Positions 7,260-49,568 of a stretch of DNA of 64,000 bases are shown one piece after another. This DNA is from a bacterium (GTDB taxonomy: Bacteria; UBP7; UBA6624; JBBIMK01). Both the position numbers and the translations under genes were made by a program. The DNA lies in assembly GCA_037444445.1 (NCBI GenBank), contig JBBIMK010000009.1, positions 6 to 64,005 of the forward strand. The letters run 5' to 3'. The stretch's first letter is position 1. Every line of letters begins with the position of its first letter. Below the pieces are notes generated by a model. That model saw nothing but the letters and a program-made list of their open reading frames with translations. It was not told the DNA's origin and searched no databases.

Positions 7260-7341
7260 ATGACAGGGAGCCGGAGCACTCAATATCAACAAGGATTTGC
7301 ACCGGGTGGATGCCTGACTGCATACTTTCCTATGAAAGATG

Positions 7342-7349: not shown

Positions 7350-7364
7350 TACGGTGGAAGACGG

Positions 7365-17766: not shown

Positions 17767-17802
17767 AATCCATTGCAAGATGACAGCGGAGGTGGTTTTA
17801 TC

Positions 17803-24497: not shown

Positions 24498-26918
24498 ATG
24501 AAGCGAGGGAAGGTGGGAATTCTGCTGAAGGCAATCTGGGGCGCCTTCCTGTTGTATGCACTTTTTTCCTGCGGCGGAGGGGGTTCCGCTACTACACCTG
24601 CGCCTGCGGCCCGAAGCCAGAAAATAATAGTGCCGTTTTCGGCGGGAAGAGGTGGTTTGCCGAGCAGCTCCCATAGAACTGCAATGACGAACCCGGCTGA
24701 GAATGCGACAGATACAACCAGCTCATCCCTGCCTCCAGCGACCCTGACACAGGAAGGTTTGCTGGAAGGACCGCCGGATTGGCGAGTCAACGAGCATCTT
24801 CCCTCTGTCCCGTTCCCGGAGTCGTTTCTCTGGGAGTTTGTGGATTCCCGGGGCCGCGCTTTCACGGAAACCGGCAGGGCTCACATAAATGTGCGGGAGT
24901 TCGGGCTTGTCCTCAGGGACTCCACGACACTGTTTCAATTGTCAGAACTGCTTCACCTCACGGATGCGTCCATATTGGGCGCAAGCCCAAAGATGAAGAT
25001 GCTTTTTGTGCGCCTCAAACAGCGACGGAATCTGGACGAATATCTCGCCTTGCTGAATCGTTTAGAAGAAGACCCCCGAGTGGAGAGGGTGATTCCGCAA
25101 GTGACTGTGTACAAAGCCTCAGCGCTCGTTCCTACTGATGAAGCAGACTGGCGCTGGGAAGTCAGTCCAGGTGGAGGCAACTGGAATTTTGAGGCAGTAA
25201 GAGTGCCCCAGGCATGGAGCCTTATGGGCTGGATTTACAGGAGACAGAATCTGGTCACCGGGGGCATCGTAGACGAGGGTTTTTTCCTTCACCCAGACCT
25301 CTCAATGAACCATGAGGAATTGAACGGTGCCAATCCAAGACTTGACAATCATCATGGAACCGGAGTTGCTGGAGTGTGGGCTGCCCTATGGGGCTCCACC
25401 GTGCAACAGAGATGGCTGGACGGAGTGCTACCGAACTCTATTCTGACCCTGTGGGGTTTAACGGGGCGAAATGTGCCGCCCCGCGGACCCGGTGACCCTC
25501 GCTGGCCCCCTCCCTGCGACATTTTCGGGCCCCAGGATGACTACGGCAAACAGTGTCTCTTCTGGCTCCAATTGTTAGATGACCTTTTCTCACAGAACAA
25601 GTTTCTGGACCTGCACCCGGAAATCAGCGTCCTGAATCTCAGCATCGGATATGGGTGTTTGTTCGCAGGCGATGCGGCGGATCCTCCCGGTAACCCTCCT
25701 GACGAGCGAGCCCGTCAAATCGCTGAGATGCTGGGCAGGGATTTTGCGCACCACTTCCAGAGCCGGGCAGACACTCTTCTACTGTTCCAGGCTGCTATGA
25801 ACTGCTACCTGAGGCGCCTGGATGAAGCCGAGGACGATGCCCGCTGGAATTCTCCCTCCTGCTATGCGTCCATAGTGGGCGACCCCACCTCCAATCCCCC
25901 TGTGCCACCCCAACAAAACATCATCTGCGTGGAAGCCACGAAGAACGCGGCGGGTTATCCGCTCGCCGGTTTCTCCAATGTGAGCGGGCAACTCTCCGCC
26001 CCGGGAAATAGCGTCACAGTATTGCTTGGAGTAGATGAAACAGCCGGGACTTCCGGCACATCCTATGCCAGCCCGCTATCCGCCGGTGCGGCATCCCTTC
26101 TGAAGTCATTCCGTCCGAGCCTGACGGTGACGCAGATTCGTCAGGCGCTTCTGACCTATTCCCGCTCCACGCCGGCAAACCAGCCTGAACCTCGGCGCGC
26201 ACCGATGCTGGATGCCTTCTACGCTCTCACCGGGCTGGACCTGATGGCAGGAAATACCGATGTCCAGAGGGAACTGGTGGATGCGGATGATGGGACGGTG
26301 GACGGGAACCTGCGGATGAGGGTATTCACCAGCGACCCGAACCCGGATGATGTTCACGCCATCCCGCCCGGAGGAACAACCCCAGACCACCGACGCGGGG
26401 ACGGGTATGTGACCCCACGCGATTTCCGCACCTTCCGGGATGTCTTCCTTCAGGTTCGCTCTGTGGAGGATGCCAATCTCGCTCCGCTCATCTCTCTGGA
26501 CGGTTCTGCGACGCATTTCAAGAGGGATTTGAATATGGACGGATGTTTGAGGGCGAGGGCGGATGCCTGCGACCCCAGCACCAATCCCTGCGTCCCCGCC
26601 AATCCCCCACACCCGGTGGACATCCCTACTCCCACCAACTGCTCGGCAGAAACCGGCGCTCCGGTGGAGAATGTCTATCCCCGGTATGATTTCAACGGGG
26701 ATGGGAGAATCACGGCTAATGCGGTCAATCCCGCCTCCGGCGATGTGGCGCCGTTCAAGATTGACCCGGACACCCACTGCACCGGGCTCAACCAGCCTGC
26801 CGGATGTCTGCGGGATATAGATGTGATGGCGCAGGTGTGGGATGCCTCTTCCTGCGAGCTTCCCGCCGGAGAATCAGCCGGTTGCCCGTCAGCACTATAT
26901 AGAGAATGTGGGCAATGA
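24498..26918 (+). CDS. Subtilisin-like (S8) serine peptidase lipoprotein with C-terminal Ca-binding dockerin/EF-hand-like repeats
   Basis: GGAGGTG RBS, then a signal peptide with lipobox LFSC. S8 triad motifs are present: Asp region GGIVDEG, His HHGTGVAG, Ser GTSYASPLSAG. Downstream are D-x-D/N-x-D-G loops (YDFNGDGRI, DLNMDGCLRA). Confidence 0.75.
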   Translation: MKRGKVGILLKAIWGAFLLYALFSCGGGGSATTPAPAARSQKIIVPFSAGRGGLPSSSHRTAMTNPAENATDTTSSSLPPATLTQEGLLEGPPDWRVNEHLPSVPFPESFLWEFVDSRGRAFTETGRAHINVREFGLVLRDSTTLFQLSELLHLTDASILGASPKMKMLFVRLKQRRNLDEYLALLNRLEEDPRVERVIPQVTVYKASALVPTDEADWRWEVSPGGGNWNFEAVRVPQAWSLMGWIYRRQNLVTGGIVDEGFFLHPDLSMNHEELNGANPRLDNHHGTGVAGVWAALWGSTVQQRWLDGVLPNSILTLWGLTGRNVPPRGPGDPRWPPPCDIFGPQDDYGKQCLFWLQLLDDLFSQNKFLDLHPEISVLNLSIGYGCLFAGDAADPPGNPPDERARQIAEMLGRDFAHHFQSRADTLLLFQAAMNCYLRRLDEAEDDARWNSPSCYASIVGDPTSNPPVPPQQNIICVEATKNAAGYPLAGFSNVSGQLSAPGNSVTVLLGVDETAGTSGTSYASPLSAGAASLLKSFRPSLTVTQIRQALLTYSRSTPANQPEPRRAPMLDAFYALTGLDLMAGNTDVQRELVDADDGTVDGNLRMRVFTSDPNPDDVHAIPPGGTTPDHRRGDGYVTPRDFRTFRDVFLQVRSVEDANLAPLISLDGSATHFKRDLNMDGCLRARADACDPSTNPCVPANPPHPVDIPTPTNCSAETGAPVENVYPRYDFNGDGRITANAVNPASGDVAPFKIDPDTHCTGLNQPAGCLRDIDVMAQVWDASSCELPAGESAGCPSALYRECGQ

Positions 26919-28451: not shown

Positions 28452-31279
28452 TTCTCCTCTCCCTCCTTAGAAATCGGGATAACCCCGGCATCCAGCCAGG
28501 GACTCCAGAAAAGTAAAAGACTGCCCCGCTCCATTGATGTCCCGCGATATGAAATTCTCATTCTTCTTTCCCCTTTTACTTCCTCCAGCCAGAGCACCAC
28601 CTCATTTCTCCCAATTTCCATGCCCTCCTCCGGGGTAAGACCTGTAATTCCATAAAATTCTACTCCTGTTGCATGGCGGATGTGAACACATAGAAAAGGG
28701 AGTGGCGCTCTTGGAACGAGGGAAAGGAAAAGAGAAGAGCCATTCACATCTGATTGAAATTCCGTTCTGACCTCCAGCAAAGAAGGAGAAAGGGAAGTGC
28801 AGGAGGCTGAGGTAGGCTTGCCCAGATGTCTATCGCGAAGGGCTTCCTCAGGAAACAGAGTGCACCGCACAGGAGGCTTTCCCTCTATCACGGGCTGAAC
28901 CACAGAGCGGAGATAATCACTCATAGGGAAATTCGCAGGAAGCAGTGGAAGAGGAGAAATTTCAGAGGCTTTCTTCAGGAGAAAATGGAATGGGAAAGCC
29001 GATGGAAGAATAGAGAAAGTTTTCATTCCAGGGGGTCGCAGAAGAGAAAAAACAGCGGTGGCAAACGGACTGTAAGCGGTAGGTTCTTCCGGCAGGAAGG
29101 CACCGGCTTTCGCTACCACGCCCTCATCCACTGCCTGCCCTTTCTCCTGCAGCGCTCTTAAAGCCAGTAGCGCCCATGCGGTGGCCTCTACATTTCCCTT
29201 CTTCATCGTTCGCAAAAAATGAAACCCCCCGTCCGACTGTTGAAACCGATAAAGCCAGCGGAGCAGGATAGAGTCGGAAAATTCCCTATCCGGGAGGAAG
29301 GAACGGGTGAGCAAATTCAGAAACGAAAAATCTTCAGAGCCTGCAGAAGCCGTAGAGACTTCCGCAATAGATTGAGAAAACAGGAGCGGTTTCCCTTCCA
29401 CTGAAAAGGCCCGGATGGTAATCGGCCAGGATGGGTCAACAGAATTCATCGGGAGAACCCTCTGGAATGAGGTTCTTTCGCCCTTCCGCAGGTCCACCCG
29501 CACCGGCACATCGCTACGAACCACCAGAGTGGGGTCTGAAACTGTGGAGGGTAAAAAATCCGCCTCCAGCCTTTTCTCCTGAGTATCAGCGATGGAAGAT
29601 AGGCGAACCTGAGTATAAATGCCCTCAGGAACCTGTAAAATTCGCGATGTGAATGCGTAAGAACCCCCCGCAGGCTCAATCAGGCTCAACCGATAATAGC
29701 CCGGCGAAGGTGGTAGCGAGATCCGTGTTTTCTCATCACCTGAAATCGGCTGAAGCAAAAATGCTGATGACAGTCCAGAGGATGAAAAGACAAAGGTGGA
29801 GTGCTTTTCCACTCTCAGGGTGGAAAGAGGAAGGGGAGGTGGAGTTCCCCCAAGGAACTCCGTCAGGCGGAAGGAAGGAGGAGTCAGTAAAAGCCATCCC
29901 TCTTCTACCTCCGGATGCTGAACCGTTAGCAGGGCTCCACCCAGAAGCACCTCCTCGGTCTGATAAGTCAAAGTCGGTGGCGGAATATTCGCCACCGGCA
30001 CGAAGGTCTGTTGAACCTGCAATCGGCCAGATTCCACCCATTCCTCACTCATCCAGAAGCCCGGTGCATAGGCTTCCGCAAGGGGCAGACGAACCTCCTG
30101 CCCCGGCTTGAAAATGCGAATGCCATCAGGCAAATAAAAATAAATCGTCTTGAAATCTGAAGGAGGCAAACTGTAAACCCCTCCGCTATTCAGGGAAGAA
30201 TCTTCCTCTCCGGTGAACTTCCAGAAATACTCCTCTCCATCTCCTTCAAGCCAGACAAAAGAATAGGGGCTGGATACAGTGGATAAGGGGGGTGCAAGAG
30301 TTATTTTCCCCGAAGTCCGGGAGTCAAAAATTCGGGTGGACGAAATCCATTCCTTTTCTCCATCTTTTATTCCATACACCGCAACCTGAAAAGGCCGGGG
30401 TGCACGGGGAAAGTAACTCAATCCCTCGCCGTCCGAGGTTAACGGTGGAAGTAGAAGAAATCGGGAGGGCTGGATGATTTCCACCCTGTAAGGCTCCCTC
30501 CCATACCCCTCCAGTTGCACTTCAATTTCTTCATCAAAAGGCTGGGGAAGGTGAAAAAACTGGAGTAAGGAAGAAACGGGAGAAAAGTAGAACAATCTCC
30601 GGGAAGAATCAAAAATCCTGAAAGAGCGGTGCTCTCCACCCCGCAGGAGTAAAGAAACTGCCCTCTCATCAACGGTATAGACCCCATCCGGAGAAACGCC
30701 CTCAGGAGCCGATGGAATTTCTATCGGAAGTTCATCTATGTCTTGCCCTTTCTGAACCCTGAGGATAGAGCCTGCGGGAACCATATCCAGTGAAACTTTT
30801 CCGCCTCCATCCGTTAGCCCGAATAGAAGTTTTTCCTGCTGGAAGAAGAGAGAAAAGGACACACTTCCCACCGGTTTTCCTGTTCTTCGCTCCACCACTT
30901 CCAGATAGAAATATCGCCCTGTTGGGTGGAGTATCATAGATAGGGAAGTAATCAAAAATGTCCGAACCGCTTCGCAGGCGCCGGATTGGAAAATTGTGCG
31001 ATAATATCCTCGTTCCAGGGGCTTCTTCAGCGGTCCCGGGAAGGGCCCGGAATAGAGAGACTCAAATCCTCCCTCATCCTCCAGAAATTCTCCCTCCCAT
31101 TTTTCTACTTGAATCGTGAACGGTGGAGGGCAGGGAGGTTCACCCAGGGAAATCGTTTCACCGGGTGAAAAACGCCAGAGAGATGAAGCAGGGGTGGAAA
31201 CAGAAGCCACAGAACCTGCCATTAGAACCGCTAACCACCAGAGTGGAATTCGTGAAATTGAAAATGGGAGGGGTGTCAA
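28448..31279 (-). CDS. Large secreted alpha-2-macroglobulin-like / prenyltransferase-squalene-oxidase-repeat (alpha/alpha-toroid) protein
   Basis: 943 aa with a signal peptide. N-terminal beta-rich modules. C-terminal region has the QxxDGGF repeat (LLRWLYRFQQSDGGFHFLRTMKKGNVEATAWALLALRA) characteristic of the A2M thioester domain and of terpenoid-cyclase-like toroids. No CxEQ thioester motif was found. Confidence 0.45.
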   Translation of the reverse strand: MTPLPFSISRIPLWWLAVLMAGSVASVSTPASSLWRFSPGETISLGEPPCPPPFTIQVEKWEGEFLEDEGGFESLYSGPFPGPLKKPLERGYYRTIFQSGACEAVRTFLITSLSMILHPTGRYFYLEVVERRTGKPVGSVSFSLFFQQEKLLFGLTDGGGKVSLDMVPAGSILRVQKGQDIDELPIEIPSAPEGVSPDGVYTVDERAVSLLLRGGEHRSFRIFDSSRRLFYFSPVSSLLQFFHLPQPFDEEIEVQLEGYGREPYRVEIIQPSRFLLLPPLTSDGEGLSYFPRAPRPFQVAVYGIKDGEKEWISSTRIFDSRTSGKITLAPPLSTVSSPYSFVWLEGDGEEYFWKFTGEEDSSLNSGGVYSLPPSDFKTIYFYLPDGIRIFKPGQEVRLPLAEAYAPGFWMSEEWVESGRLQVQQTFVPVANIPPPTLTYQTEEVLLGGALLTVQHPEVEEGWLLLTPPSFRLTEFLGGTPPPLPLSTLRVEKHSTFVFSSSGLSSAFLLQPISGDEKTRISLPPSPGYYRLSLIEPAGGSYAFTSRILQVPEGIYTQVRLSSIADTQEKRLEADFLPSTVSDPTLVVRSDVPVRVDLRKGERTSFQRVLPMNSVDPSWPITIRAFSVEGKPLLFSQSIAEVSTASAGSEDFSFLNLLTRSFLPDREFSDSILLRWLYRFQQSDGGFHFLRTMKKGNVEATAWALLALRALQEKGQAVDEGVVAKAGAFLPEEPTAYSPFATAVFSLLRPPGMKTFSILPSAFPFHFLLKKASEISPLPLLPANFPMSDYLRSVVQPVIEGKPPVRCTLFPEEALRDRHLGKPTSASCTSLSPSLLEVRTEFQSDVNGSSLFLSLVPRAPLPFLCVHIRHATGVEFYGITGLTPEEGMEIGRNEVVLWLEEVKGERRMRISYRGTSMERGSLLLFWSPWLDAGVIPISKEGEEK

Positions 31280-32457
31280 ATACTCCCGACCATGGCATCA
31301 TCCGGCCGGTCAAACGGATAGACTTCAATTTCCGTCTTTTTCGCTTCCCGCAGAACCTGAAGTTTTAACTTATCATCCGGTCCTAACTGTCGGATGTTCA
31401 GCGCCAGGTCTCGTGGACTTTTATACAGGATTTCCTCGGTCACCAATTGGCCAGCGGGGGATTGGCGCGTGAACTTGGCGCCCAGGATAATGTCACCCAC
31501 CCGAAGCCCACGCTTGGCCGCAGGTCCTTTGAGATCCACAGTATCCACGATAATTCCTGCATCCTTCTCTATCCATTCTTCAGGCATACCGGCGAAAATC
31601 CGAAGGAGTTTCGTGGTGGGTGAAGCGATGACCCCAAACCAGGGGTGATAGATTTTCCGTCCCGCAATTAAATCAAAAGCATACTGCCGAAGGTCATTGG
31701 AAGGGAATACAATGTTCAAATTCTGCACTTCCCGCACCAGTTCTGTGGGAATGATAGTGGATTGCTCCACTGCCAGGGCATTGATGCCCAGCACCTCACC
31801 TCGCATATTCGCCAGCGGTCCTCCCAGATTGTATAGGTAAAAGCGAGCATCCGTCTGAATCACCTTCGGAACGAAGTAATCCCAGTTCATGTAGTAATCC
31901 CGAACGGAACTAATGACACCCACGGATGCGGCTACCGTTTCCCCCAGCGGATATCCGAGAGCCAGCACGGTTTCTCCCGCTTGAACTGCGGAGGAATCTC
32001 CGAAGGTAACAGCGGGGAAAGGACCCGGGCCCAGAATCTGGATGATGGCGAGGTTATTCCAGCGGTCATAATTCGCCAGACGGGCGGGCAGAATCCGCCC
32101 GTCGTGGAGGCGAACCTGCATTTCCTTCGCCCCCTTCACCTGTGTATACAGCGTAACCGCATACCCCTCGGGTGATACGATGAATCCTGAAGTTCCACCC
32201 TGGGCTATCAGACGCTGGAAGGAGCGACGAAACACGGGCGACTGATATAATGTCGTCACCACTTCCACAGACACCACCGCCGGCGCTACCTTCTCCACTG
32301 CTTCCACGAAGGCAAAACTTCCAGGGTCAAACACATAGGTGGGAGTCATTGCAGAGCAAAAAAGCAACAGGCTTACTCCCACCACCCAGAAGATGGAACT
32401 CTTCTTCCCCCGGCTATCCATCTTTTCACCCCTTTCCCGCCATTGGCTCCCAGCCAT
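31276..32457 (-). CDS. HtrA/DegP-family pseudo-protease with PDZ domain (catalytic triad replaced)
   Basis: Trypsin-fold + PDZ architecture. The His box reads VTLYTQV (no His). The Asp box reads NNLAIIQI (Asp to Asn). The Ser box reads YNLGGPL instead of GNSGGPL (Ser to Leu). Confidence 0.7.
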   Translation of the reverse strand: MAGSQWRERGEKMDSRGKKSSIFWVVGVSLLLFCSAMTPTYVFDPGSFAFVEAVEKVAPAVVSVEVVTTLYQSPVFRRSFQRLIAQGGTSGFIVSPEGYAVTLYTQVKGAKEMQVRLHDGRILPARLANYDRWNNLAIIQILGPGPFPAVTFGDSSAVQAGETVLALGYPLGETVAASVGVISSVRDYYMNWDYFVPKVIQTDARFYLYNLGGPLANMRGEVLGINALAVEQSTIIPTELVREVQNLNIVFPSNDLRQYAFDLIAGRKIYHPWFGVIASPTTKLLRIFAGMPEEWIEKDAGIIVDTVDLKGPAAKRGLRVGDIILGAKFTRQSPAGQLVTEEILYKSPRDLALNIRQLGPDDKLKLQVLREAKKTEIEVYPFDRPDDAMVGSI

Positions 32458-32466
32458 TTCTTTGCC

Positions 32467-33669
32467 TCAAACGGTTCCCCCGGCGCCCGCAGGGGGCTGG
32501 GGCTGCTCTTCTATCCGCAAAGTCACCAGTCGGAACACACCGCCCCGCCGAATGAAAAATTCCACCGAGTCCCCCACTGACATACTCCGAATCATCTTCC
32601 GAAGTTCAAAGGCATCTTTGTATACTTTCCCGTTAACGGAGTAAATCACATCCCCGGCGGCAAGCCCCGCCTGCTCCGCCGGCGAGCCCGGAAAAACCCC
32701 CTTGATTTTTACCGGATATTTCATTCCCTTGTAAAATTCATCTAATCTCAGAATCTCTTCCTTGATATAACGCTGAATATCCTGCTGTGGATTAAACCCC
32801 TGCTCTACACCGGGCCAGCCACCGATATAAGTAGGATTCCTCTCCTGAGGGGTCCAGAAGATGAAGAGCCCTGCCCACGGGTAAATCACCCGCCCGTATT
32901 TTAAGATGTCTTCCGCACTCTTCTTCGCATCGTTGATGGGGTAGAAAAGATTTTGTGCCTCCATCGCACTGGAACCCCAGGAGTTAATCCCAATCTGCTC
33001 GCCCCGGGCATTAAAAGTGGCTCCCCCGCTGTTACCGGCATTGATGGTGGCCGTGGATTGAATTATCCAGGTGAGTTCCTTACCATAGTCCGGATTATTG
33101 AAAACATCCTCCGCACTCATCAGCGGAAATGGATATTCAAAATCCTTCACAATACCCACCGTTACAGTGTTCACCAGCTGGAACTCTTTGAGCCGGAATC
33201 CCGGGTTGAATTGCTCAATCATAAATCCTAAGGAGGCATCGCCGGGAGAGCCAATGGCGAAAACCAGGTCATTTTTCTGAATCTTCTCAGAATCCGCCAG
33301 GTCTACATACGGGAAGACTCTGGGTTCCGGGGTGATGATTTTCACCAGGCCGAAATCCACCTTCACATTAGTGCCCACCACTTTCCCGGGAAGCACCTCC
33401 CCATTATCCAGAGTAATATCTACGAGTTTAGCGGAGGTGACCACATGCCAGTTGGTGTAGATATAGCCATCCGGCGAGACGATGGAGCCGCTTCCTCCAC
33501 CCCCCCCTGCTCCACCGGGGCTCCGATGTAACACCCGAACCATGGCAGGCTTCACTTTCGCCACCACCGGCGTCAGGTCCATCGTCGCTATCCCTTCCGC
33601 TCCCTGCTCCTCCGTTGCTTCCAGCGACAGCACCATAAAAGAAAGCAAAAGGATAGAAAGTTTTTTCAT
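32467..33669 (-). CDS. htrA: HtrA/DegP-family serine endoprotease with PDZ domain (catalytically intact)
   Basis: Signal peptide MKKLSILLLSF. His box YTNWHVV, Asp box VDFGLVKI, Ser box GNSGGATF, C-terminal PDZ. The ATG at 33669 overlaps the upstream stop (ATGA). Confidence 0.8.
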   Translation of the reverse strand: MKKLSILLLSFMVLSLEATEEQGAEGIATMDLTPVVAKVKPAMVRVLHRSPGGAGGGGGSGSIVSPDGYIYTNWHVVTSAKLVDITLDNGEVLPGKVVGTNVKVDFGLVKIITPEPRVFPYVDLADSEKIQKNDLVFAIGSPGDASLGFMIEQFNPGFRLKEFQLVNTVTVGIVKDFEYPFPLMSAEDVFNNPDYGKELTWIIQSTATINAGNSGGATFNARGEQIGINSWGSSAMEAQNLFYPINDAKKSAEDILKYGRVIYPWAGLFIFWTPQERNPTYIGGWPGVEQGFNPQQDIQRYIKEEILRLDEFYKGMKYPVKIKGVFPGSPAEQAGLAAGDVIYSVNGKVYKDAFELRKMIRSMSVGDSVEFFIRRGGVFRLVTLRIEEQPQPPAGAGGTV

Positions 33670-34706
33670 CTTTTCATCCCTCCTTTCCACTCGGCGATGG
33701 TCACATCTCGCTCAAGGATGCGGCCATCCCGCCAGATTTTCACTGAAAAAGTATCCCCGATATTCAACTGATTCACAGGAATCCAGAAGTCCTGAGGCAG
33801 GGTAAGAGATTTCCCCCCCAGTTCCAGCAGGAAATCGTTGGCACGAATCCCCGCTTTATCGGCTGGACTCCCCTCATCTACGAAAGTAACAAATAGTCCA
33901 TAATCATACGGGTATCCGTAGCGGGTTCGCTGGGTGTCATCCACCACCAGCAAAGATACCCCGGTCCAGGGGCGGGCGAATCGCCCCTTCTCCACTATCT
34001 CCTTCACCACTCTCCGCACCGTATTCACCGGAATGGCAAAGTGCAAGTATAATTCCTTATATTGCTGACGCAGGAAAGTAAGAACCCCCACCACTTCTCC
34101 TCGGAAATTCAAAAGAGGTCCCCCCTGCATTCCGTAGGAAATAGGGGCATCCGTTTGAATAAAGGTAGTCACTCCACCTTCCGCCCAGGGTCCCGCGGTG
34201 GGCAGTGCAGAAAGTATCCCGAAAGAAGGTGTGAACAGCCCATTTGAACTCACACCGACGGCAATCAGAGGCTCACCCACTCTCGGTGATTCGTTCTCGG
34301 GCAGGAAAGGAACCGCGGTCAGTTTCTCCGCCCGGATGCGAACCACTGCCACATCCGTCGGCTCATCCATTCCCAACAGCACCCCCTCATAACTTTTCCC
34401 ATCTGAAAGAATCACCTGGATATAACGGGCATACTTCAAGGTTTGAGCCGTCGTGAGTATATATCCCTTTTTGTCATCAAAAATGAATCCAGAGCCTACT
34501 TCCGTAAGGGTTGCGTCACCCAGAATCCCTCGCTTACGCTCTAAAAAACGAACCTTCACCTGCACCAGAGCCGGTAACACTCCGTTGGAAATATCATTCA
34601 TCCGCTGGGCATAAGGATGTATTTCCCGGGGCACGGTGGTGCCGAAAAGGAACACCATACAGACCCCCCCCACCAGTCCAGCCATTTTCAGCCTGAGTCC
34701 TTTCAC
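33666..34706 (-). CDS. HtrA/DegP-family pseudo-protease with PDZ domain (His and Ser replaced)
   Basis: The His box reads LTTAQTL (His to Gln). The Asp box PTDVAVVRI is retained. The Ser box reads GMQGGPL (Ser to Gln). Signal peptide and PDZ domain are present. Confidence 0.7.
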   Translation of the reverse strand: MKGLRLKMAGLVGGVCMVFLFGTTVPREIHPYAQRMNDISNGVLPALVQVKVRFLERKRGILGDATLTEVGSGFIFDDKKGYILTTAQTLKYARYIQVILSDGKSYEGVLLGMDEPTDVAVVRIRAEKLTAVPFLPENESPRVGEPLIAVGVSSNGLFTPSFGILSALPTAGPWAEGGVTTFIQTDAPISYGMQGGPLLNFRGEVVGVLTFLRQQYKELYLHFAIPVNTVRRVVKEIVEKGRFARPWTGVSLLVVDDTQRTRYGYPYDYGLFVTFVDEGSPADKAGIRANDFLLELGGKSLTLPQDFWIPVNQLNIGDTFSVKIWRDGRILERDVTIAEWKGGMKR

Positions 34707-38631: not shown

Positions 38632-38667
38632 TCTCTCTACCTCCTGTTAAAATTTTATTTTCCATTT

Positions 38668-38694
38668 TAGCACTCTCGTGCCTTGACCGCTAAT
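38668..38694 (-). promoter_or_regulatory. CIRCE operator (HrcA binding site) upstream of groES
   Basis: On the gene strand it reads TTAGCGGTC-N9-GAGTGCTAA (consensus TTAGCACTC-N9-GAGTGCTAA). One arm is perfect, the other has 2 mismatches, with 9-nt spacing. A TATAAT-like -10 lies immediately upstream on the same strand. Confidence 0.6.
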
Positions 38695-38707
38695 AATTAT
38701 AGAAGAT

Positions 38708-39361
38708 TCAAAAACCCTGTGTCAAGTCCTTCCAGTTACCTCTGGTTTCCCACTCATATTCCAGAATTTGAATGGTTGCTCCTTCCTTCTGAAAGGTTTT
38801 CAGCAGGCGGAAGTTCCACTCGGCCGCCGCCAGCACCGGATTCCCCTGCCAGGGCTCCTGATAGGAAAATCCATAATGGGGATGATAGGTGAGCATCATC
38901 AACCGATACCCGGGGTATCGGATGGGACGAGGAACCACCAGCCCCAGCAAATCCACCACTTCGCAGTCGCAGTAATACCCTAAATACCCGATGTCTGTGG
39001 AAGAAACGGAAATGGGGGGCTGACCATTCTCCTTCAGCCACTCCGCCGCTTCCTTCTTCAATTCACTCTTCGTTTTGTGTTCCTGAAGTTCATCCCACAG
39101 CCCGGCGGAATGCTCCAGAAAAGACGGAAGCAAGGCAATGCCAGCCAAAACAAGCCCGAATCCAGCCGCTGGCTTCCATTTCCCCAGCCATTGCCATACT
39201 TTCCCTGTTCCGATACTCACCAGCAAAAGATAAATCGGATAGATGGACATAAAGTACCACGGCGCTATGAGAGCGTGGGTGATGGAGAAAAACACTAAAA
39301 AAGTCCAGTGCCACACCATCAGCAACAGCCCTTCATTTCTTCTCGCCACGATAGAATACAT
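38708..39361 (-). CDS. C-terminal fragment of a GT39/GT83 (PMT/ArnT-like) membrane glycosyltransferase
   Basis: Its frame is open upstream through the C8 tract at 39455-39462 and would join the N-terminal fragment after a 1-nt change in that tract. Confidence 0.55.
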   Translation of the reverse strand: MYSIVARRNEGLLLMVWHWTFLVFFSITHALIAPWYFMSIYPIYLLLVSIGTGKVWQWLGKWKPAAGFGLVLAGIALLPSFLEHSAGLWDELQEHKTKSELKKEAAEWLKENGQPPISVSSTDIGYLGYYCDCEVVDLLGLVVPRPIRYPGYRLMMLTYHPHYGFSYQEPWQGNPVLAAAEWNFRLLKTFQKEGATIQILEYEWETRGNWKDLTQGF

Positions 39362-39449
39362 CCCGAACAGGTAAAAGGGGAAGAGAAAAATTTTCAGTGG
39401 AGCCAGCGTGTGAATAAAGGGGTTATAAAAGAAAAAATAACCGAAAACA

Positions 39450-40301
39450 TCATACCCCCCCCTGTGGGTGAATGAAATACTGGGACAGAAGCGAGGTATC
39501 TAAAGACCCCATCGCCCCCATCTTCAATCTCCAGATAACATCCGATAAGTCCTTTTTCGCAAGGAGAGGCTCCGGCAGGAGAACTCCATAATATCCATAA
39601 ATCAAAAGGGCAGTCAGAAATGAAAAAAGCCCCAAAAATAGCAGGGTTTTCATTCCCCTTTTCCAGTTTTGATAAAAAAGAAACAGGATTGCCGAGGCAT
39701 CGTAAAATATGGCTTCCGGTCGTGTGAGAACCATTGTCAGCATCACTAAAGACAGGTTGAAAGGCTCTGCCTTCTTCCTCATAAGAACGAGAAGCAGGAA
39801 AAACAAAAAGTGAAAAAGTGGCGTTTCCATCCCCGAGGCTTCAAAAATATGAAAGAAGGGATTCCAGGTGAAAAAAAGGAGGGCAATGGTGGCTGTGCCT
39901 CTTCCCCATTCTTCTTTCACAAAAAAATAGAGGAGGATACAGGTGAATAGAAAAAAAAGCCAGTTCAGGAGGTAAGCCGAAAGAATTCCTTCTACCCCGA
40001 TAGAAATCAGTCCAGCGTTCAACAGCATAAAAAGGGGTGCAGAGGTTCCGAAAATCCGCATCCCCGGATTGAACACCGCCCCCAGCCCATCCGCCAGGTT
40101 CCGGGCATATCGCAGGGTGATCAGAGCATCGTCCGTGGGATATTGAACCAGAACATACGCCAGCAAACGAAGAACCGCACCCGTAAGAATCAGCAGGATT
40201 GCCGTCTTCTCTGTTTTCCAGTATTTCTTTACCTGACGAGTGATTATTTTTCTGCCTGTGCAAATATAAGAAAAACCTGCTATGTGGAAGAGCACACCCA
40301 T
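39450..40301 (-). CDS. N-terminal fragment of a GT39/GT83 (PMT/ArnT-like) membrane glycosyltransferase
   Basis: Multi-TM protein. A first-loop motif YPTDDALITLRYARNLADGLG resembles the DE/DD catalytic loop of ArnT/PMT enzymes. The ORF ends ...HPQGGV* immediately after a G8 run on the coding strand. Confidence 0.55.
   Translation of the reverse strand: MGVLFHIAGFSYICTGRKIITRQVKKYWKTEKTAILLILTGAVLRLLAYVLVQYPTDDALITLRYARNLADGLGAVFNPGMRIFGTSAPLFMLLNAGLISIGVEGILSAYLLNWLFFLFTCILLYFFVKEEWGRGTATIALLFFTWNPFFHIFEASGMETPLFHFLFFLLLVLMRKKAEPFNLSLVMLTMVLTRPEAIFYDASAILFLFYQNWKRGMKTLLFLGLFSFLTALLIYGYYGVLLPEPLLAKKDLSDVIWRLKMGAMGSLDTSLLSQYFIHPQGGV
39455..39462. repeat. Homopolymeric G8/C8 tract at the junction of the two glycosyltransferase fragments
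   Basis: cccccccc at 39455-39462. Changing the tract to 7 or 10 fuses the two ORFs into one reading frame of about 530 aa. Confidence 0.8.
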
Positions 40302-40338
40302 ATGCAGTTCAGGAGGTAAAATGTGTCGGGAAGTGGAT

Positions 40339-41460
40339 TTATTCTTCTAAACCGGCGATCCCGCCTTTGAACTCGGTTCGTGCTTTCCTCAACGAGCGCT
40401 GGCGGACGAAAAGTTTGAAATCGTGTGGGCTGGAAGCCGCATTTAATGCGGTCTCATAGGTGATTTTCCCCTCCGTATATAACTGATACAGGTGCTGGTC
40501 AAAAGTCTGCATCCCCTCAAACTCATCCTCTTCCATAGCCTGGCGGATGAGGGAAAGGTCTTCCCCTTCCTGAATCAATTCTCGGATTCTTGCCGTGGCG
40601 ACCATAATTTCCATAGCGGGGATGCGTCCCCCTCCCACCATAGGCAGTAGTCGCTGGCAGAGAATGCTCTCCAGGGTAGTGGCAAGCATTATCCGAATCT
40701 GGTTCTGAAACTCTGGTGGGAAGTATTCCACAATCCGGTTCAAAGTTTGAACCACATCCATCGTGTGGAGTGTGGTCATCACCAATCTCCCGGTGATGGC
40801 CGCCGTGATAGCCGCCATAATGCTTTCCCGGTCCCGCATCTCTCCAATCATAATGGCATCCGGGTCCTCCCGCAGAATGGTGCGGAGAGCGGAAGCAAAG
40901 TCCGAGGTGTCCAGCCCCACTTCCCGCTGGTTGATGATAGCCTTTTTATCGTAGAACACATACTCAATGGGGTCTTCCACACAGATGATGTGATACGGCT
41001 TGTGAAGATTGATGTGCTCAATCATAGTGGCGAGAGTGGTGGACTTCCCGCTTCCCGTGGTTCCAGTAACAATAATCAGCCCCCGGGGTCGCAGAGAGAG
41101 CTGCGCCAGCAGGGGGGGAAGGTTGATCTCTTCAAAGGTGGGGATGCGAGTTTTCACATGGCGAATAGCAAAGGCGAGGGTTCCTCTCTGGCGGAAGAAG
41201 TTCACTCGGAAGCGCCCCTCAATATCCGGCGCCCGATAGGAGAAGTCCAGTTCATCCCGCTCTTCCAGGAGATGTTCCCGCTTGGCAGTCAGGAGGGTTC
41301 GCCCCGCCGCTTCCAGGTCCTCTTCCGTCAGGATAGGCAGGTCCGTAGGTTCCAGAATCCCATCAATCCGAAGATAGGGAGGGCGTTCAAACCCCAGATG
41401 AAGGTCTGATGCCCCCCGCTCCACCATCATTCGGAGCAAATCTCTGATGTCTATCGGCAT
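40339..41460 (-). CDS. pilT: Type IV pilus retraction ATPase PilT
   Basis: PilT N-terminal, Walker A GLIIVTGTTGSGKSTTLA, Asp box, His box. 373 aa. Confidence 0.9.
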   Translation of the reverse strand: MPIDIRDLLRMMVERGASDLHLGFERPPYLRIDGILEPTDLPILTEEDLEAAGRTLLTAKREHLLEERDELDFSYRAPDIEGRFRVNFFRQRGTLAFAIRHVKTRIPTFEEINLPPLLAQLSLRPRGLIIVTGTTGSGKSTTLATMIEHINLHKPYHIICVEDPIEYVFYDKKAIINQREVGLDTSDFASALRTILREDPDAIMIGEMRDRESIMAAITAAITGRLVMTTLHTMDVVQTLNRIVEYFPPEFQNQIRIMLATTLESILCQRLLPMVGGGRIPAMEIMVATARIRELIQEGEDLSLIRQAMEEDEFEGMQTFDQHLYQLYTEGKITYETALNAASSPHDFKLFVRQRSLRKARTEFKGGIAGLEE

Positions 41461-41510: not shown

Positions 41511-41549
41511 ATAAAAATCAGGGGGGTCTCCTTCAGGAGGAGACCCCCC
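41511..41549 (-). terminator. Rho-independent terminator after the first pilin gene
   Basis: On the minus strand: GGGGGGTCTCC tcctgaa GGAGACCCCCC (11-bp GC stem) followed by TGATTTTTAT. Confidence 0.6.
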
Positions 41550-41589
41550 CATTATACGGGCGCCCCACAGAATTGGAAATGAACTTTCT

Positions 41590-42684
41590 TTACTGTTCTA
41601 CGGTGCCGCCGGTGGCTTGCTCGGTTCCAGCGGAGTAGTAAACCACGACGCCGTCATAACGACCATCCTGGTTGGGTGTGCTCACATCCGTGGCTCGGGC
41701 AACCCCTGGTGCAGGAACAAAGGCCACATTGGGTATCTCCGCCACGCCCAGGAGTGTGCCCTGAGAGCTCACTCCACCATAGCCCGGCTCATTTAACCAA
41801 ATCGAGCCCGGGATAAAAGCGTTAGGATTCTGACGGCATCCGAACCTGTCTACCACCGTGCCTGACAGGGTGCCAAACTCTGTGGGCAGACCGTTTAGTC
41901 CACCGTTTGGATTTCGTGTCCCCCAGCAGTGCAGGACATCCTTCCCCACAGTGCGGACCGAGCCATACCCAGCCAGCAGGAAGTGGTCAATAGAGAATGG
42001 CCTCATAATGCCTCCGGTGGTGCCTAACTGGCGGATAATCCCCGGCGTTACCCCGTAAGCCCGATAGGCGAACTCACCCGGAATCCAGTCCACCGTCTGG
42101 GTGTTATCATCCCCCATGAAGTAGTAAATTACCTGCTGTTGACCAGTGGCTAAAGGGTTATCACTGGGTAACGGACTCAGGGTGCCGCACTGGGAAGTCT
42201 GGGTATTGCAGTTGTTGGTGTCTCGTCCGGGGTAATTCGGGTCCGATAGAATGTTACCCAGAAGATCGCCGCCTTGTGGCCGCGGGGGTAAGCCCGCTCT
42301 CCACCAGCAGCCGAAGCGCGGGTCCAGGTTGGTCCGAATGCAGAGAGAGCTTCCGTCCTTCATAAATGGATTCCGATGGTAAGAAGTTTGATACCCGTAG
42401 AAAATTAAGGGGTCCATGGGCTGTGCAGTAGCGAGAGCAGCCCACCCTTGCCCATTGGTCCAGGAAGCCACATCCCCACCGTAAATATAGTTCGGATATA
42501 GGCCATCCTGATCCGTGGCGTATCGCTCCAGGGATATCTGGATGGCGTGGACGGAGGACTTGGTTTGCACCTCCAGCGCCTTGTCCTTCGCCTTGATGAA
42601 GTTGGGAAGGGCAAGGGAAACCAGTATCCCGATGATGGTGATGACCACCAATAACTCAATGAGGGTAAACCCTCTACGAATCAT
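41590..42684 (-). CDS. Type IV pilin-like protein with class III prepilin signal and a large (about 300 aa) Cys-rich globular domain (candidate major pilin)
   Basis: N-terminus MIRRGFTLIELLVVITIIGILVSLALPNF (G-F-T-L-I-E cleavage/methylation motif, Glu+5). A strong terminator follows immediately downstream. Confidence 0.75.
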   Translation of the reverse strand: MIRRGFTLIELLVVITIIGILVSLALPNFIKAKDKALEVQTKSSVHAIQISLERYATDQDGLYPNYIYGGDVASWTNGQGWAALATAQPMDPLIFYGYQTSYHRNPFMKDGSSLCIRTNLDPRFGCWWRAGLPPRPQGGDLLGNILSDPNYPGRDTNNCNTQTSQCGTLSPLPSDNPLATGQQQVIYYFMGDDNTQTVDWIPGEFAYRAYGVTPGIIRQLGTTGGIMRPFSIDHFLLAGYGSVRTVGKDVLHCWGTRNPNGGLNGLPTEFGTLSGTVVDRFGCRQNPNAFIPGSIWLNEPGYGGVSSQGTLLGVAEIPNVAFVPAPGVARATDVSTPNQDGRYDGVVVYYSAGTEQATGGTVEQ

Positions 42685-42817
42685 AAAAACACCTCCTTTT
42701 TTCCGTCAGGGAGAAAAGGAAGCCCGCTTTTTCAGGGAGAACCCTGTGGGGCGCCCTTTCTTTTTTATCTCTCTTCAATGCAGGCTTCCCTTCCTCTCTG
42801 CACGGAATTTTTATTCC

Positions 42818-43987
42818 TTACTTCAGTTCCCGTTTGGGCTCCTTATCCAATCCACCGTAAACCAGGGTGATAATTTGGTCAGGCGTGCCATCAGGGCCAC
42901 TTCCACTGGGTCCCACCTCATCTCCAGGCTTCAGGGGCGTAATGGTATAGGTGCACTGCCAGGTACTTGGCGGGACTTTGTAGAAGGGGACATTCATCGG
43001 GTCTGGCTCAAAGGAGAAATATCCCGTGAGAAACCCGTGAGCACCGCCGAAGGAGGTCCAACACCAACCCCCCGCACCCGGTGGTTCACAGCAGGAGCGG
43101 TGCATATAATCGTAGCCCAGGGTTTTGATAGAGCCGAAGCCCACGAGAACATATCCGCAGACGGCGTGGGAAAGGATTCGGGCCGCCGGTAGGCTACCCG
43201 TGTTGTTCAAGGCTTCCAGATGGGCATCCACGGTCTCACCGTCGCAGAAAACCGGGTGATAAAAGAACTGACCCGGCACATCCATGCTCGGAGGACCATA
43301 CTGCTGACGATAGCCGGACATGTCATTTGCCCACAAATCCGTCCACACCGATTCGCCTTTCCCCCAGCCGAGGTCGAACATAAGGTTGCCATATCTGCCT
43401 CCCACGGCGTAACCAGGGCTGTAGAGTTGAACATAAGGGGACCCCGCAGCCCAGACGCTGTTGATGTTTGGCGGTATGAACGGATTCTTCGGATACTCGC
43501 TCAGATAGCCGAACATCAACAGCATGTCCATGCAGACTTCCTTGCTCGGGGAGTTGGGACCCCGATACTCCGGAACTCTCTGCTTCAGGGTTCCCAGTTC
43601 AGGCAGACAGTAAGGCCGGTTGGTGTTGCAATCCACAAAGTCCGGCGGGTTTAGCCAACTGCCATCGTAATCCAGGAAGGCAGATTCACCGGCGTTCGTT
43701 CCCGGATTGCATCCGGAGGAACTAGCGTATGGTCCTCCGTCTGCACTGGCGATATTGAACTCCTGGTCACCTCCCGTGACTACCTGTGGATAGAGCCCCG
43801 CATTTTCCACAGCGTAGCGCTCCAGTGCCATCTGAATGATGTGGATGTTGGCTTTGATCTGCGTTTCCTTCGCCTTATCCCGCGCCCGTATATAGTTGGG
43901 TAAGGCGATAGAAACCAGAATTCCCAGAATCACCATAACCACCAGTAACTCAATAAGCGTGAAACCTCGAATCATTCGGGATTTCAC
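42818..43987 (-). CDS. Type IV pilin-like protein paralog (389 aa)
   Basis: N-terminus MKSRMIRGFTLIELLVVMVILGILVSIALPNYIRARDKAKE is nearly identical to the paralog at 44082-45221. Large Cys/Trp/Tyr/Gly-rich C-terminal domain. Confidence 0.75.
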   Translation of the reverse strand: MKSRMIRGFTLIELLVVMVILGILVSIALPNYIRARDKAKETQIKANIHIIQMALERYAVENAGLYPQVVTGGDQEFNIASADGGPYASSSGCNPGTNAGESAFLDYDGSWLNPPDFVDCNTNRPYCLPELGTLKQRVPEYRGPNSPSKEVCMDMLLMFGYLSEYPKNPFIPPNINSVWAAGSPYVQLYSPGYAVGGRYGNLMFDLGWGKGESVWTDLWANDMSGYRQQYGPPSMDVPGQFFYHPVFCDGETVDAHLEALNNTGSLPAARILSHAVCGYVLVGFGSIKTLGYDYMHRSCCEPPGAGGWCWTSFGGAHGFLTGYFSFEPDPMNVPFYKVPPSTWQCTYTITPLKPGDEVGPSGSGPDGTPDQIITLVYGGLDKEPKRELK

Positions 43988-44081
43988 CGCGTATCACCTC
44001 CTTTCAGATTCTTGTTGTTCTCTTTCATTTTTTGGGTTCCTTCGTTTTACCGCCTTTCATCCTCGGATAACGAAGTAGCCT

Positions 44082-45221
44082 TTACGGCGGTGGCCCCTGA
44101 CCTGAGGCTTCGCATCCGGGCTTCCGGGTGTCCATGAGCACCTTCACATCCACGCCGGAGGAGAGAACGGTGATGACACCGTCTGGCAACCCGTCAGGAC
44201 CGTTATACACGCAGTAAGCATCGCGTGCGGAGGCATAGTTCAAGTCCCCCGGTTCCAGTTTGCAATCCCCCTCCGCATCATCACAGGCGAGAGTGCTCTC
44301 TGCGTAATCGCCCAGGACATCATAGACATCGTGCCCGCGATTCCAGCTAGCACCATAGCCTGCCAGATGATAGCCCACCACCTTTGCCTGCATAAAGAAC
44401 CCTGTCCAGACATAATTCGAGTCTGGCTGTATGGGGTAGTAGTAGAAGTTGCCCGGTAGGTAATTGTGGAGGATTTTGTTGGAGGTTTGAGCCTGGGCGG
44501 GGTCGCAGCCGGGGCTCCCTAACTTGCATCGGATGGAATAGGGTGGGTGCCCTGCCCAGCCTCGGGCGGTAACGGTAAGCCCTGATACAGTATTATTCAA
44601 TTGCCCCCCGCGCTGGCAAGCGCCTTTGCCTAACCCATAAGCCCCGGAAGGACCGCAGATGGCTCCGTAAACCCCCTCGCTGACATCCCACATAAAGGAG
44701 TTGGTAGGTCCGCCCACATGTCGACAAGAGGCGTCGTCGGCTGATTGACACCGATTGTTGGGGAAAACCGTGCTGTAGTTGCAGAACACATCGGCGTTGC
44801 CCCCCATGTTATTTGGCCAGCGCGGGTGTGGACACTCCCGCACCTGAAACTGGATTCCGGTGCCCGCCGCTGACATAAAGGGATTGTTAGGGTACCGATT
44901 GAGGTAGCCGTATTCCATGAGTGGGTCCCCATCCCCGCAGGGCTGGCTGATCCTCGGGCAGTATATCGGGGCAAAGGGGGAAGCATTCCAGTCGTCGTAA
45001 TTCCCCCCCAACAGCCACTTGGGAAAGGCCCCGTCATTATCCGAAGCATACCGTTCCAGCGCAGTGCGGATAATGTGCAGGTTCGCCTCCACCTGCTTCT
45101 CTCGCGCTTTGTCCCGCACCCTCGTGTAGTTGGGCAACGCAATGGCCACCAGTATCCCGATGATGACCATGACCACCAGTAACTCAATCAGTGTGAATCC
45201 ACGAATCATTCGGGATTTCAC
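44082..45221 (-). CDS. Type IV pilin-like protein paralog (379 aa)
   Basis: N-terminus MKSRMIRGFTLIELLVVMVIIGILVAIALPNYTRVRDKAREKQ. Its 5' UTR, including the AAAGGAGGTGATA RBS, is near-identical to that of the neighbouring paralog. Confidence 0.75.
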   Translation of the reverse strand: MKSRMIRGFTLIELLVVMVIIGILVAIALPNYTRVRDKAREKQVEANLHIIRTALERYASDNDGAFPKWLLGGNYDDWNASPFAPIYCPRISQPCGDGDPLMEYGYLNRYPNNPFMSAAGTGIQFQVRECPHPRWPNNMGGNADVFCNYSTVFPNNRCQSADDASCRHVGGPTNSFMWDVSEGVYGAICGPSGAYGLGKGACQRGGQLNNTVSGLTVTARGWAGHPPYSIRCKLGSPGCDPAQAQTSNKILHNYLPGNFYYYPIQPDSNYVWTGFFMQAKVVGYHLAGYGASWNRGHDVYDVLGDYAESTLACDDAEGDCKLEPGDLNYASARDAYCVYNGPDGLPDGVITVLSSGVDVKVLMDTRKPGCEASGQGPPP

Positions 45222-47765: not shown

Positions 47766-49568
47766 TTACGAAATCAGGGGAGCCAGTTTCCGCGGCGCCT
47801 CCGCCAGACCGGGAACCCTCCGCTCGGGAACCCGTTCAGGTATTAACTCCAGAGCCCGTTCCTCGGGTGGAACCACCCGGAGCACTTCCTCCAGCGTCGT
47901 AATTCCCTCCAGGGCTTTGCGAACACCGTTTTCGTACAGGGTCCGCATTCCCTCCCGCATCGCCTGGCTCTTGATTTCCATGTGAGAAGCGCCCGACAGA
48001 GCCATTTCCCGGATCCGGGGGCTCATCACCATAATTTCAAACAGGGCGGTTCGGCCCTTGTAGCCAATCCCGTTGCAGAACTTGCACCCCACCTTGTTAT
48101 AAAGAATCACTTCCTCCGTTTCCTTCCGCCCCAGAACCTTCATCACCCCCGCTATCTTCTCCATCTCGTACGAAGAGGGATGGTAGGATTTCTTGCAATA
48201 AGGGCAGAGGACGCGAATCAAACGCTGGGCAACCGCCGCTATCAGTGTGGCATTCACCAGGTAGGGCTCCACGCCGATGTTCACCAGACGAATGATGGAT
48301 GAAGGTGCATCATTGGTGTGAAGGGTAGAAAAAACGAGGTGACCGGTCAGGGAAGATTGAATCGCCATCTCCGCCGTTTCGTAGTCCCGAATTTCCCCGA
48401 TCATCATGATGTCCGGGTCGGAGCGGAGAAAGTGCCGGAGCGCCGAGGCGAAAGTCACTCCCACCTTCGTGTTCACCTGCACCTGATTCACCCGGTCAAT
48501 TTCATACTCCACCGGCTCTTCAATGGTCATCACATTCACTTCATCGGTGGCAATTTTCATCAAAGAAGCATACAGCGTCGTGGTTTTCCCGCTCCCCGTA
48601 GGACCCGTGAGAAGGATAATCCCGTGAGGGCGGGAAATCAATGAGTTCCACACCTTCATCTCGTCCTCCGAGAACCCCAGGTCCACCAGGCTCATCAACC
48701 CCACCGCCCGGTCCAGTATTCGCATGACAATTTTCTCCCCGTACACCGTAGGAACGGAAACCACACGCATATCAATCTCCCGGTCGGGCATCTGGAAAAA
48801 AATCCTCCCATCCTGAGGCTTTCGTCGCTCCGCCGTGTCCATCCCTGCAAGAATCTTGACCCGGGCCAGCGTAGCCGCTATGGCTTGCTTCGGGATTTCC
48901 ATCTGTGGTATCAAAATGCCGTCCACCCGGTACCGAACCTTCATTTTTTCTCTCCGGGGTTCCAGGTGGATGTCCGAAGCCCGGGAATTTACCGCTCCCG
49001 TAATCAGCGTGTCCACCAGCTTGACAATCGGGGCATCTTCTACCTCAAACTCTTTGGAAATCTGCTTGAGTTCCAGAAGGTCCAGCCCCTTTTCCCGCCG
49101 CTCCGCCACAAACTCTTTGATGGCTTTCTGCGCAGCGTGCTTCACCCCGTAGTGCTGTTCAAAGGCGTGCTTTAAAGCATCCAGGGTGGTGATAGCCGGG
49201 CGAACCTCATATCCAGTCGCCAGCCGTATGTCATCAATCGCAAGAAGATTCAGAGGGTCCACCATCGCCAGCACAAGCGTATTCCCCTCCAGTCGCACCG
49301 GAAAAACCTGATGCCGAAGAATCAGGTCGGGAGTAATCACCCCTTTCGTAATCAGCGCCTGGTCCACGGGCGTCTCAAACAGGTCAATCACCTCCACACC
49401 CAGTTGATGGGAGAGGGTCCGGGTGATATCCTCCGGGGAAGCCATCGCCAGTTCCACAATCACCTCTCCCAGGCGCTTCCCCGTTTCCTGCTGGACTTTC
49501 AGGGCACGCTCCAGGTCCTCGGCAGTAAGTAACCCTGCCTCCACCAGCAAATCACCTAATCTCTTCAT
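47766..49568 (-). CDS. pilB: Type IV pilus assembly (extension) ATPase PilB/GspE with N-terminal MshEN-like domain
   Basis: N-terminal GLLTAEDLERALKVQQETGKRLGEVIVEL, Walker A GIILLTGPTGSGKTTTLYA, and a tetracysteine motif CPYC...CKFC. Confidence 0.9.
   Translation of the reverse strand: MKRLGDLLVEAGLLTAEDLERALKVQQETGKRLGEVIVELAMASPEDITRTLSHQLGVEVIDLFETPVDQALITKGVITPDLILRHQVFPVRLEGNTLVLAMVDPLNLLAIDDIRLATGYEVRPAITTLDALKHAFEQHYGVKHAAQKAIKEFVAERREKGLDLLELKQISKEFEVEDAPIVKLVDTLITGAVNSRASDIHLEPRREKMKVRYRVDGILIPQMEIPKQAIAATLARVKILAGMDTAERRKPQDGRIFFQMPDREIDMRVVSVPTVYGEKIVMRILDRAVGLMSLVDLGFSEDEMKVWNSLISRPHGIILLTGPTGSGKTTTLYASLMKIATDEVNVMTIEEPVEYEIDRVNQVQVNTKVGVTFASALRHFLRSDPDIMMIGEIRDYETAEMAIQSSLTGHLVFSTLHTNDAPSSIIRLVNIGVEPYLVNATLIAAVAQRLIRVLCPYCKKSYHPSSYEMEKIAGVMKVLGRKETEEVILYNKVGCKFCNGIGYKGRTALFEIMVMSPRIREMALSGASHMEIKSQAMREGMRTLYENGVRKALEGITTLEEVLRVVPPEERALELIPERVPERRVPGLAEAPRKLAPLIS

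Follow-up and report, generated by a model that had tools for sequence, protein, structure and literature searches.

Two open reading frames (ORFs) on the minus strand of a 64-kb window of bacterial DNA meet at a run of eight G nucleotides, within the interval 38708-40301. Are they two genes or one, and if they are one, why is the gene broken at this point? The sequence-only reading of this stretch had taken them for the halves of a single membrane glycosyltransferase gene, of the ArnT/PMT-like (GT39/GT83) type, split at the G8 tract, and had offered either phase variation or a sequencing error as the cause. Judged from its sequence, the interval holds a single gene for a membrane glycosyltransferase. 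The most likely explanation of the break appears to be that an accessory gene of the GT-C superfamily, dispensable and probably acquired, was recently inactivated and is being lost in its clade, a reading to which we assign a probability of about 0.55. All coordinates are positions in the 64-kb window, and the glycosyltransferase gene lies on its minus strand.

The interrupted gene and its close relatives

The features of the locus are summarized in Table 1. The N-terminal reading frame ends ...SQYFIHPQGGV* (CAG GGG GGG GTA TGA), with the TGA located 3 nucleotides (nt) past the tract. The open stretch of the C-terminal frame starts 37 nt upstream of the tract and reads through as ...THRGGYDVFGYFFFYNPF..., and this frame encodes around four transmembrane helices and a periplasmic alpha/beta domain with a DIGYLGYY...DLLGLV motif. 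Removal of one G gives an ORF of 530 amino acids (aa) with the junction ...HPQGGYDVF..., and addition of two Gs gives one of 531 aa. A tract of G8 is therefore out of frame, and G7 and G10 are both in frame. The original description of the two ends, the open frame and the fusing tract lengths was thus accurate. The tract is at codon 281 of 530, mid-gene and in a variable loop. In the NCBI record of the source contig (64,437 nt) the region is entered as two coding sequences (CDSs), one of 283 aa and the other of 203 aa. Each half can be aligned to proteins that are single chains of 450-570 aa, and it is this that takes the one-gene reading beyond chance.

A search of GTDB genomes and JGI metagenomes with back-translated peptides of the fused protein gave no close relative, and exact-protein look-ups of the window GroES, the N-terminal fragment, PilT and a 100%-identical GroEL (P0121) gave no match. 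Two relatives were reached via the neighbouring GroEL. These are L007 (Logan SRR11582170; GroEL P0122, 99% identity) and L008 (JGI 3300010938; GroEL P0123, 95% identity). The gene is carried by only two genomes among ~15 billion proteins.

L007 has ~96% DNA identity to the window and shares the order pilT, glycosyltransferase, groES, groEL. At the position of the tract it reads CAC CCC CAG GGA GGC TAT GAT, encoding HPQGGYDV; the 7 nt (GGGAGGC) are in frame, and translation continues as HPQGGYDVF. At the level of sequence comparison the 7-nt state proves that the architecture is that of a single ORF, and the two-CDS annotation is not the biological gene, as had been suspected. Two synonymous differences (GGA/GGG and GGC/GGG) make the run homopolymeric in the window, which in addition has one extra G.

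The ortholog is unsplit at the tract but is broken instead at two other places, independently of the window. Where the window has T8, L007 has T7, and its frame shifts after ...LLNWLF to leave ORFs of 82 and 403 aa. At the 5' end, the segment corresponding to window 40224-40337 is swapped for 14 unrelated bases; the start codon is lost, and no ATG, GTG or TTG is left upstream of the first transmembrane helix (TM1). Over the 3562 nt from the glycosyltransferase gene through the end of groEL the two sequences differ by 96 substitutions and 2 indels, and both indels are in the glycosyltransferase gene. The lengths of noncoding homopolymers also vary between window and L007 (e.g. A6 vs A8), as expected of real slippage filtered by selection.

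L008 lacks the gene. In this relative groES begins 232 nt after the pilT stop, with 143 nt of unrelated spacer between the two genes; homology to the window stops at ~40327 and restarts at ~38706. In relatives whose GroEL is 77-79% identical, the genes found upstream of groES are unrelated. An ancient synteny of glycosyltransferase and groES (suggested by L001) is ruled out by these relatives with their other neighbours.

Two further observations concern the 5' region. At 8083-8101 of L007 the remnant of the glycosyltransferase N-terminus lies in the pilT frame, parted from it by the pilT TAA stop and five codons; this is probably a coincidence. The window contains an exact 15-nt direct repeat, CAGTTCAGGAGGTAA (plus strand), at 39961-39975 and 40305-40319, with a rough chance expectation of ~0.003 for the region. 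One copy is immediately upstream of the glycosyltransferase ATG, in the 5' segment that has no L007 counterpart, and the other is just upstream of the T8 tract.

How long has the gene been broken? With both frames repaired, window and L007 can be compared over 504 codons. There are 23 amino-acid differences, and the rates of synonymous (dS) and nonsynonymous (dN) substitution are 0.098 and 0.021, giving dN/dS = 0.21. Around 23.5 nonsynonymous differences are observed, compared with ~113 expected under neutrality. The corresponding values of dN/dS are 0.04 for pilT, 0.08 for pilC, 0.04 for groEL and 0.14 for groES. Across 106 homologs, 32 alignment columns reach a conservation of 80% or more, and the window protein keeps 30 of them (the deviations are V83I and Y497F), which is the family median. 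All the conserved C-terminal residues beyond the break are retained. The gene was thus evidently under purifying selection for most of the window-L007 divergence. Taken together, the low dN/dS and the intact conserved residues indicate that the lesions are recent, reversible or artefactual, and they argue against a long-standing pseudogene. The GC content of the gene is 47.7% (rank 4 of 312 windows), and at third codon positions it is 0.56, compared with 0.63-0.68 in the neighbouring genes. This atypical composition, together with the patchy presence of the gene, fits a horizontally acquired accessory gene.

The tract itself is unexceptional. The window contains four runs of at least 8 G or C where 11.5 +/- 3.6 are expected from a first-order Markov model, so such runs are not enriched. 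GGG is the commonest Gly codon (36%), and 12 of the 107 Gly-Gly pairs are encoded by GGGGGG. The G tract is therefore not beyond chance. There are 41 homopolymers of at least 7 bases in the window, and only the G8 of the glycosyltransferase gene breaks an ORF; the other 40 include A9, T9, two other G8 runs (C8 on the plus strand) and two A8 runs. Further homopolymer frameshifts, which would be a sign of poor assembly, were sought at the overlapping ORF pairs 7260/7841, 24269/24498, 49605/51835 and 54038-57828, and were rejected, as the pairs proved to consist of separate, intact genes whose starts had been extended too far. Three tandem HtrA-like paralogs (Trypsin_2 + PDZ) occupy 31276-34706 (minus strand), and two of them have an in-frame G8 (plus-strand C8 at 33500 and 34664). 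Both of these runs are interrupted or diverged in L008. The longest G/C run of the window is a C9 at 24381-24389, in a divergent intergenic region that is likely promoter space, between genes for a class V fructose-1,6-bisphosphatase (22865-24085, minus strand) and a subtilase (24498-26918, plus strand).

Protein family and fold

A protein search with the fused sequence returned several hundred homologs, of which the best have 24-31% identity over 76-94% of the query; no relative listed exceeded about 31-36% identity across a sizeable part of it. The homologs are 450-570 aa in length and come from non-mycobacterial phyla. Most are unnamed, although the name 'arabinofuranosyltransferase' is sometimes used in JGI. 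Their alignment (A1) shows motifs conserved to either side of the break, namely DD...RYA.N...G.G.V.NPG, SGMET, TRP(D/E) and YG..P.S..AK on the N-terminal side, and WY..P and DIG.LGYY....LD..GLV.P on the C-terminal side, and the junction falls within a variable loop. A profile of A1 matched 17,407 cluster representatives (50% identity) at E<=1e-30. The best 150 of these are 449-660 aa in length save one protein of 1223 aa, and 147 of the 150 were matched in a single near-full-length stretch.

Assignment to ArnT/PMT proved too specific. The fused protein has no significant match in Pfam, and no PMT (PF02366), PMT_2 (PF13231) or ArnT match at E<=1; a few family members have a precomputed match to PF13231 (PMT_2). 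The NCBIfam AftB equivalog NF041481 gave a local match below its cut-off, covering only residues 54-94 with 32.2 bits against the cut-off of 1050. Among PDB sequences the A1 profile found AftB (9dlf, E = 1.8e-20) and GPI mannosyltransferase 1 (~1e-4); beyond these two there was nothing at E<=1, and no ArnT/PMT chain. AftB is the sole strong sequence match among solved structures. The main profile match covers the transmembrane domain, and the periplasmic domain contributes a second, weak stretch.

The AlphaFold model has a predicted local distance difference test score (pLDDT) of 77 and a predicted template modelling score (pTM) of 0.83, with low confidence for residues 271-298 at the junction. 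In a Foldseek search all 23 of 23 matches at E<=1e-3 were GT-C enzymes (STT3, PglB, AglB, ALG9/12, AftB and ArnT). ArnT (GT83; 5f15/5ezm) has this superfamily fold and was matched with a template modelling score (TM-score) of 0.52 and E ~3e-5, while structures of PMT (GT39) reached only E ~0.4-0.7. STT3/PglB, ALG9/12 and AftB score equal to or above ArnT, and of the significant matches AftB is the most similar in sequence (17% identity) and shows the lowest root-mean-square deviation (7.0 A). The earlier assignment is thus loosely right, and valid at the level of the GT-C superfamily and fold only.

Mycobacterial AftB is a terminal beta-(1->2)-arabinofuranosyltransferase of the GT-C subclass GT-C_A (PDB 9dlf/9dlh), in which D62 (catalytic), R221 and R372 are essential (PMC12041299). 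In a hidden Markov model (HMM) alignment AftB D62 corresponds to D58 of the DD motif in the window protein, and R221 to R194, the Arg of TRPE; both are conserved. D57-D58 is located just after TM1, and D58 is conserved in 99% of the 106 homologs. In both proteins the N-terminal domain is polytopic and the C-terminal domain periplasmic. They differ in length (~530 aa compared with 617-669 aa for AftB), and a Trp conserved in the window family (W347) stands against the essential R372, in a part where the HMM alignment is weak. None of the genes of the decaprenylphosphoryl-arabinose (DPA) pathway was seen among the window ORFs scanned. Both the alignments and the structural model predict that the protein is a GT-C_A enzyme, of a large AftB-related family that has no characterised member or Pfam model.

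Explanations for the broken frame

If the gene is being lost, the sequence of events would be as follows. An accessory, compositionally atypical gene would have been inserted between pilT and the groES promoter, and ordinary codon usage (Gln-Gly-Gly as CAG GGG GGG) would have given it a G7 run. Replication slippage would then have added one G and shifted the frame. Translation would end after residue 283 and miss the final transmembrane helices as well as the periplasmic domain, leaving the enzyme off in the sequenced consensus. The extra G would on this basis be real and not an assembly error, and the truncated product would likely be inactive. By analogy with AftB, enzymes of this class would take a sugar from a polyprenyl-phosphate donor and attach it to an acceptor in the periplasm, by means of the Asp of the DD motif. 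A number of points weigh against recent loss. The G8 is a consensus reading, which may reflect an error of consensus or assembly at the tract or a mixed G7/G8 population. The dN/dS of 0.21 and the preserved downstream frame of 263 codons would equally fit a functional gene, whether phase-variable or mis-sequenced. The two window-L007 indels coincide with the two homopolymers that are longest in the shared region, a pattern that length-dependent sequencing error would also give. Moreover the trend towards decay is drawn from few observations, of a gene in two genomes only.

An error of sequencing, assembly or consensus would mean that the true tract is G7, that the gene is intact and functional, and that the split is an artefact of the metagenome-assembled genome (MAG). 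This would account for a break precisely at a homopolymer, for the intact downstream frame with all of its conserved residues, for the dN/dS and the 7-nt in-frame state of the ortholog, and for the location of the two inter-assembly indels. Yet the other 40 runs of at least 7 bases in the 64 kb break no ORF, so this assembly is not prone to homopolymer errors, and the T7 of L007 would need a second independent error in another assembly. The replacement of the L007 5' end with loss of the start codon would be unexplained, as would the gene's absence from L008. The error that the sequence-only reading had named as its second possibility is therefore disfavoured, and we regard it as unlikely. In phase variation, the first explanation given in that reading, the G tract (perhaps the T8 also) would be a reversible switch of a surface-glycosylating enzyme, with the MAG in the OFF state. 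At eight Gs the run has a length at which slippage is elevated, the enzyme class acts on the cell surface, and the gene ends a type IV pilus cluster with hypervariable pilin-like genes. Its coding sequence was under purifying selection until recently, and the two sister genomes are OFF at different homopolymers. Glycosyltransferases switched by homopolymers are well documented in Campylobacter, Neisseria and Helicobacter (e.g. PMC3025981), and the arrangement seen here, a poly-G in the ORF of a surface-glycan enzyme where a gain or loss of one nucleotide toggles the frame, is that of the contingency loci of Campylobacter, Neisseria, Haemophilus and Helicobacter. In contrast to those loci, the homopolymer is not kept in the nearest relative, which reads GGGAGGC, and the other G8 runs of the window are also interrupted in L008. 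Long G/C runs are not enriched (a result for the window only), and the run is accounted for by codon usage. It lies in a variable loop that is modelled with low confidence. The start-codon loss in L007 is irreversible damage to the sister copy, and L008 is without the gene. In addition the organism is a thermophile from the environment, and no host-driven selection is known for it. We find a phase-variation switch improbable on this evidence.

The full-length protein might alternatively be made by programmed recoding, through +1 ribosomal frameshifting on GGG-G or transcriptional slippage on G8. The attraction of this idea is by reasoning alone: tRNA-Gly could re-pair perfectly after a +1 slip in G8, the G run resembles a Shine-Dalgarno sequence, and a UGA stop comes one codon later. 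Against it, the L007 ortholog is in frame with no slippery run at the site, and the stop codon would be outside the A site at the slip position, unlike the situation in prfB. Practically all of the best 150 among the 17,407 family representatives are full-length single chains that give no hint of being split. Recoding is therefore highly improbable.

Neighbouring genes and the significance of the locus

Table 1. Positions of the features discussed, in the coordinates of the window.
Feature	Coordinates	Strand	Comment
PilT-type ATPase, upstream neighbour	40339..41460	-	37-nt gap to glycosyltransferase start; no predicted terminator
5' leader and first 26 codons, with the sole start codon (ATG 40301)	40224..40337	-	Replaced in L007
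Segment present in window and L007, not in L008	38707..40326	.	From sequence comparison; accessory marker
Whole disrupted gene	38708..40301	-	G7 form: predicted 530-aa GT-C (AftB-like) membrane glycosyltransferase
N-terminal reading frame, 283 aa, end HPQGGV*	39450..40301	-	Carries DD motif, SGMET and TRPE with R194; P0243 in NCBI record
D57-D58 codons, GT-C 'DD' motif	40128..40133	-	D58 aligned with catalytic AftB D62
T8 tract, coding strand CTT TTT TTT (Leu-Phe-Phe)	39951..39958	-	In frame in window
G8 tract, coding strand CAG GGG GGG G	39455..39462	-	C8 on + strand; one G above in-frame state
C-terminal reading frame, 263 codons, open stop-to-stop	38708..39499	-	First ATG 39361
groES promoter TTGACA-18-TATAAT, perfect sigma-70-type	38696..38725	-	Overlaps last codons and stop of glycosyltransferase; -35 box in last codons

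The order of genes on the minus strand is pilB-like (47766-49568), pilT-like, pilC, three large N-methyl pilin-like genes, pilT, and then the glycosyltransferase. The three pilin-like genes (N_methyl motif, 364-389 aa) occupy 41590-45221 (minus strand), corresponding to 3224-6852 in L007. Between window and L007 they have dS = 0.78-1.26 and 21-35% amino-acid differences, compared with dS = 0.07-0.16 for the flanking pilT, pilC and groEL. This suggests recombination or diversifying selection acting on the pilus subunits. A strong hairpin followed by a T-run, GGGGGGGTCTCC...GGAGACCCCCC TGATTTTT, is found after the third pilin-like gene at 41513-41550 (minus strand), and pilT and the glycosyltransferase may therefore form their own transcription unit. 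The G run of this hairpin is one longer in L007 (8) than in the window (7), by substitution and not by indel. On the other side, the groES promoter is followed by an inverted repeat resembling CIRCE (controlling inverted repeat of chaperone expression), TTAGCGGTC-N9-GAGTGCTAA at 38667-38693 (minus strand), and then by groES and groEL. The promoter and the CIRCE-like element are kept in both L007 and L008. The gene of the cognate repressor, hrcA, is encoded in the same window (7260-8396, plus strand).

Might the enzyme modify the pilus? TfpW of Pseudomonas aeruginosa group IV strains is a GT-C D-arabinofuranosyl pilin glycosyltransferase (bioRxiv 10.1101/2020.04.19.049825), and it shares with the window protein the GT-C class, a DD(x) motif and a gene located in a type IV pilus cluster. 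But the TfpW gene is directly downstream of pilA and its product has a C-terminal TPR domain, whereas the window gene follows pilT and no TPR was detected in its product. Moreover, homologs of the window gene elsewhere have no linkage to pilus genes, and adjoin birA/coaX/groES or unrelated genes; a pilin-glycosylation role, as judged from the context of the homologs, was rejected on this ground. A TfpW-like role is only speculation. A fuller scenario, in which an AftB-like GT-C enzyme was captured into the pilus locus to modify the hypervariable pilins or another surface target, with the G7/8 and T8 tracts as ON/OFF toggles under phage or predator pressure, seems to us very doubtful.

Beyond the two close relatives, the nearest GroEL sequences have 77-81% identity, and the named ones among them (79%) are from 'bacterium JZ-2024 1'; the next, at ~68%, are from Armatimonadota and Firmicutes. 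Sample 3300010938, the origin of L008, is cited in a study of the Chocolate Pots hot springs in Yellowstone (PMC6137239). The source belongs to a deep uncultured lineage of thermophiles, probably diderm. Other products encoded in the window include an SLH-domain, porin-like protein and a multihaem cytochrome (17773-19389 and 21256-22572).

Taken overall, the locus is ordinary biology. For annotation, a single gene marked as frameshifted should take the place of the two CDSs (283 and 203 aa). For the organism, it provides a small, clean example of the loss of an accessory surface-modification gene, with the first lesions on the longest homopolymers, arising independently in sister lineages, and with the loss caught while the coding sequence still looks selected. 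Were reads to show a stable mixture of G7 and G8, an environmental thermophile would join the organisms with homopolymer phase variation. If the toggles of the pilus locus were real, a free-living thermophile of a deep uncultured lineage would have a contingency locus. Finally, the gene points to a very large AftB-related GT-C family, with ~17,000 clusters at 50% identity (E<=1e-30), that has neither a Pfam model nor a known substrate.

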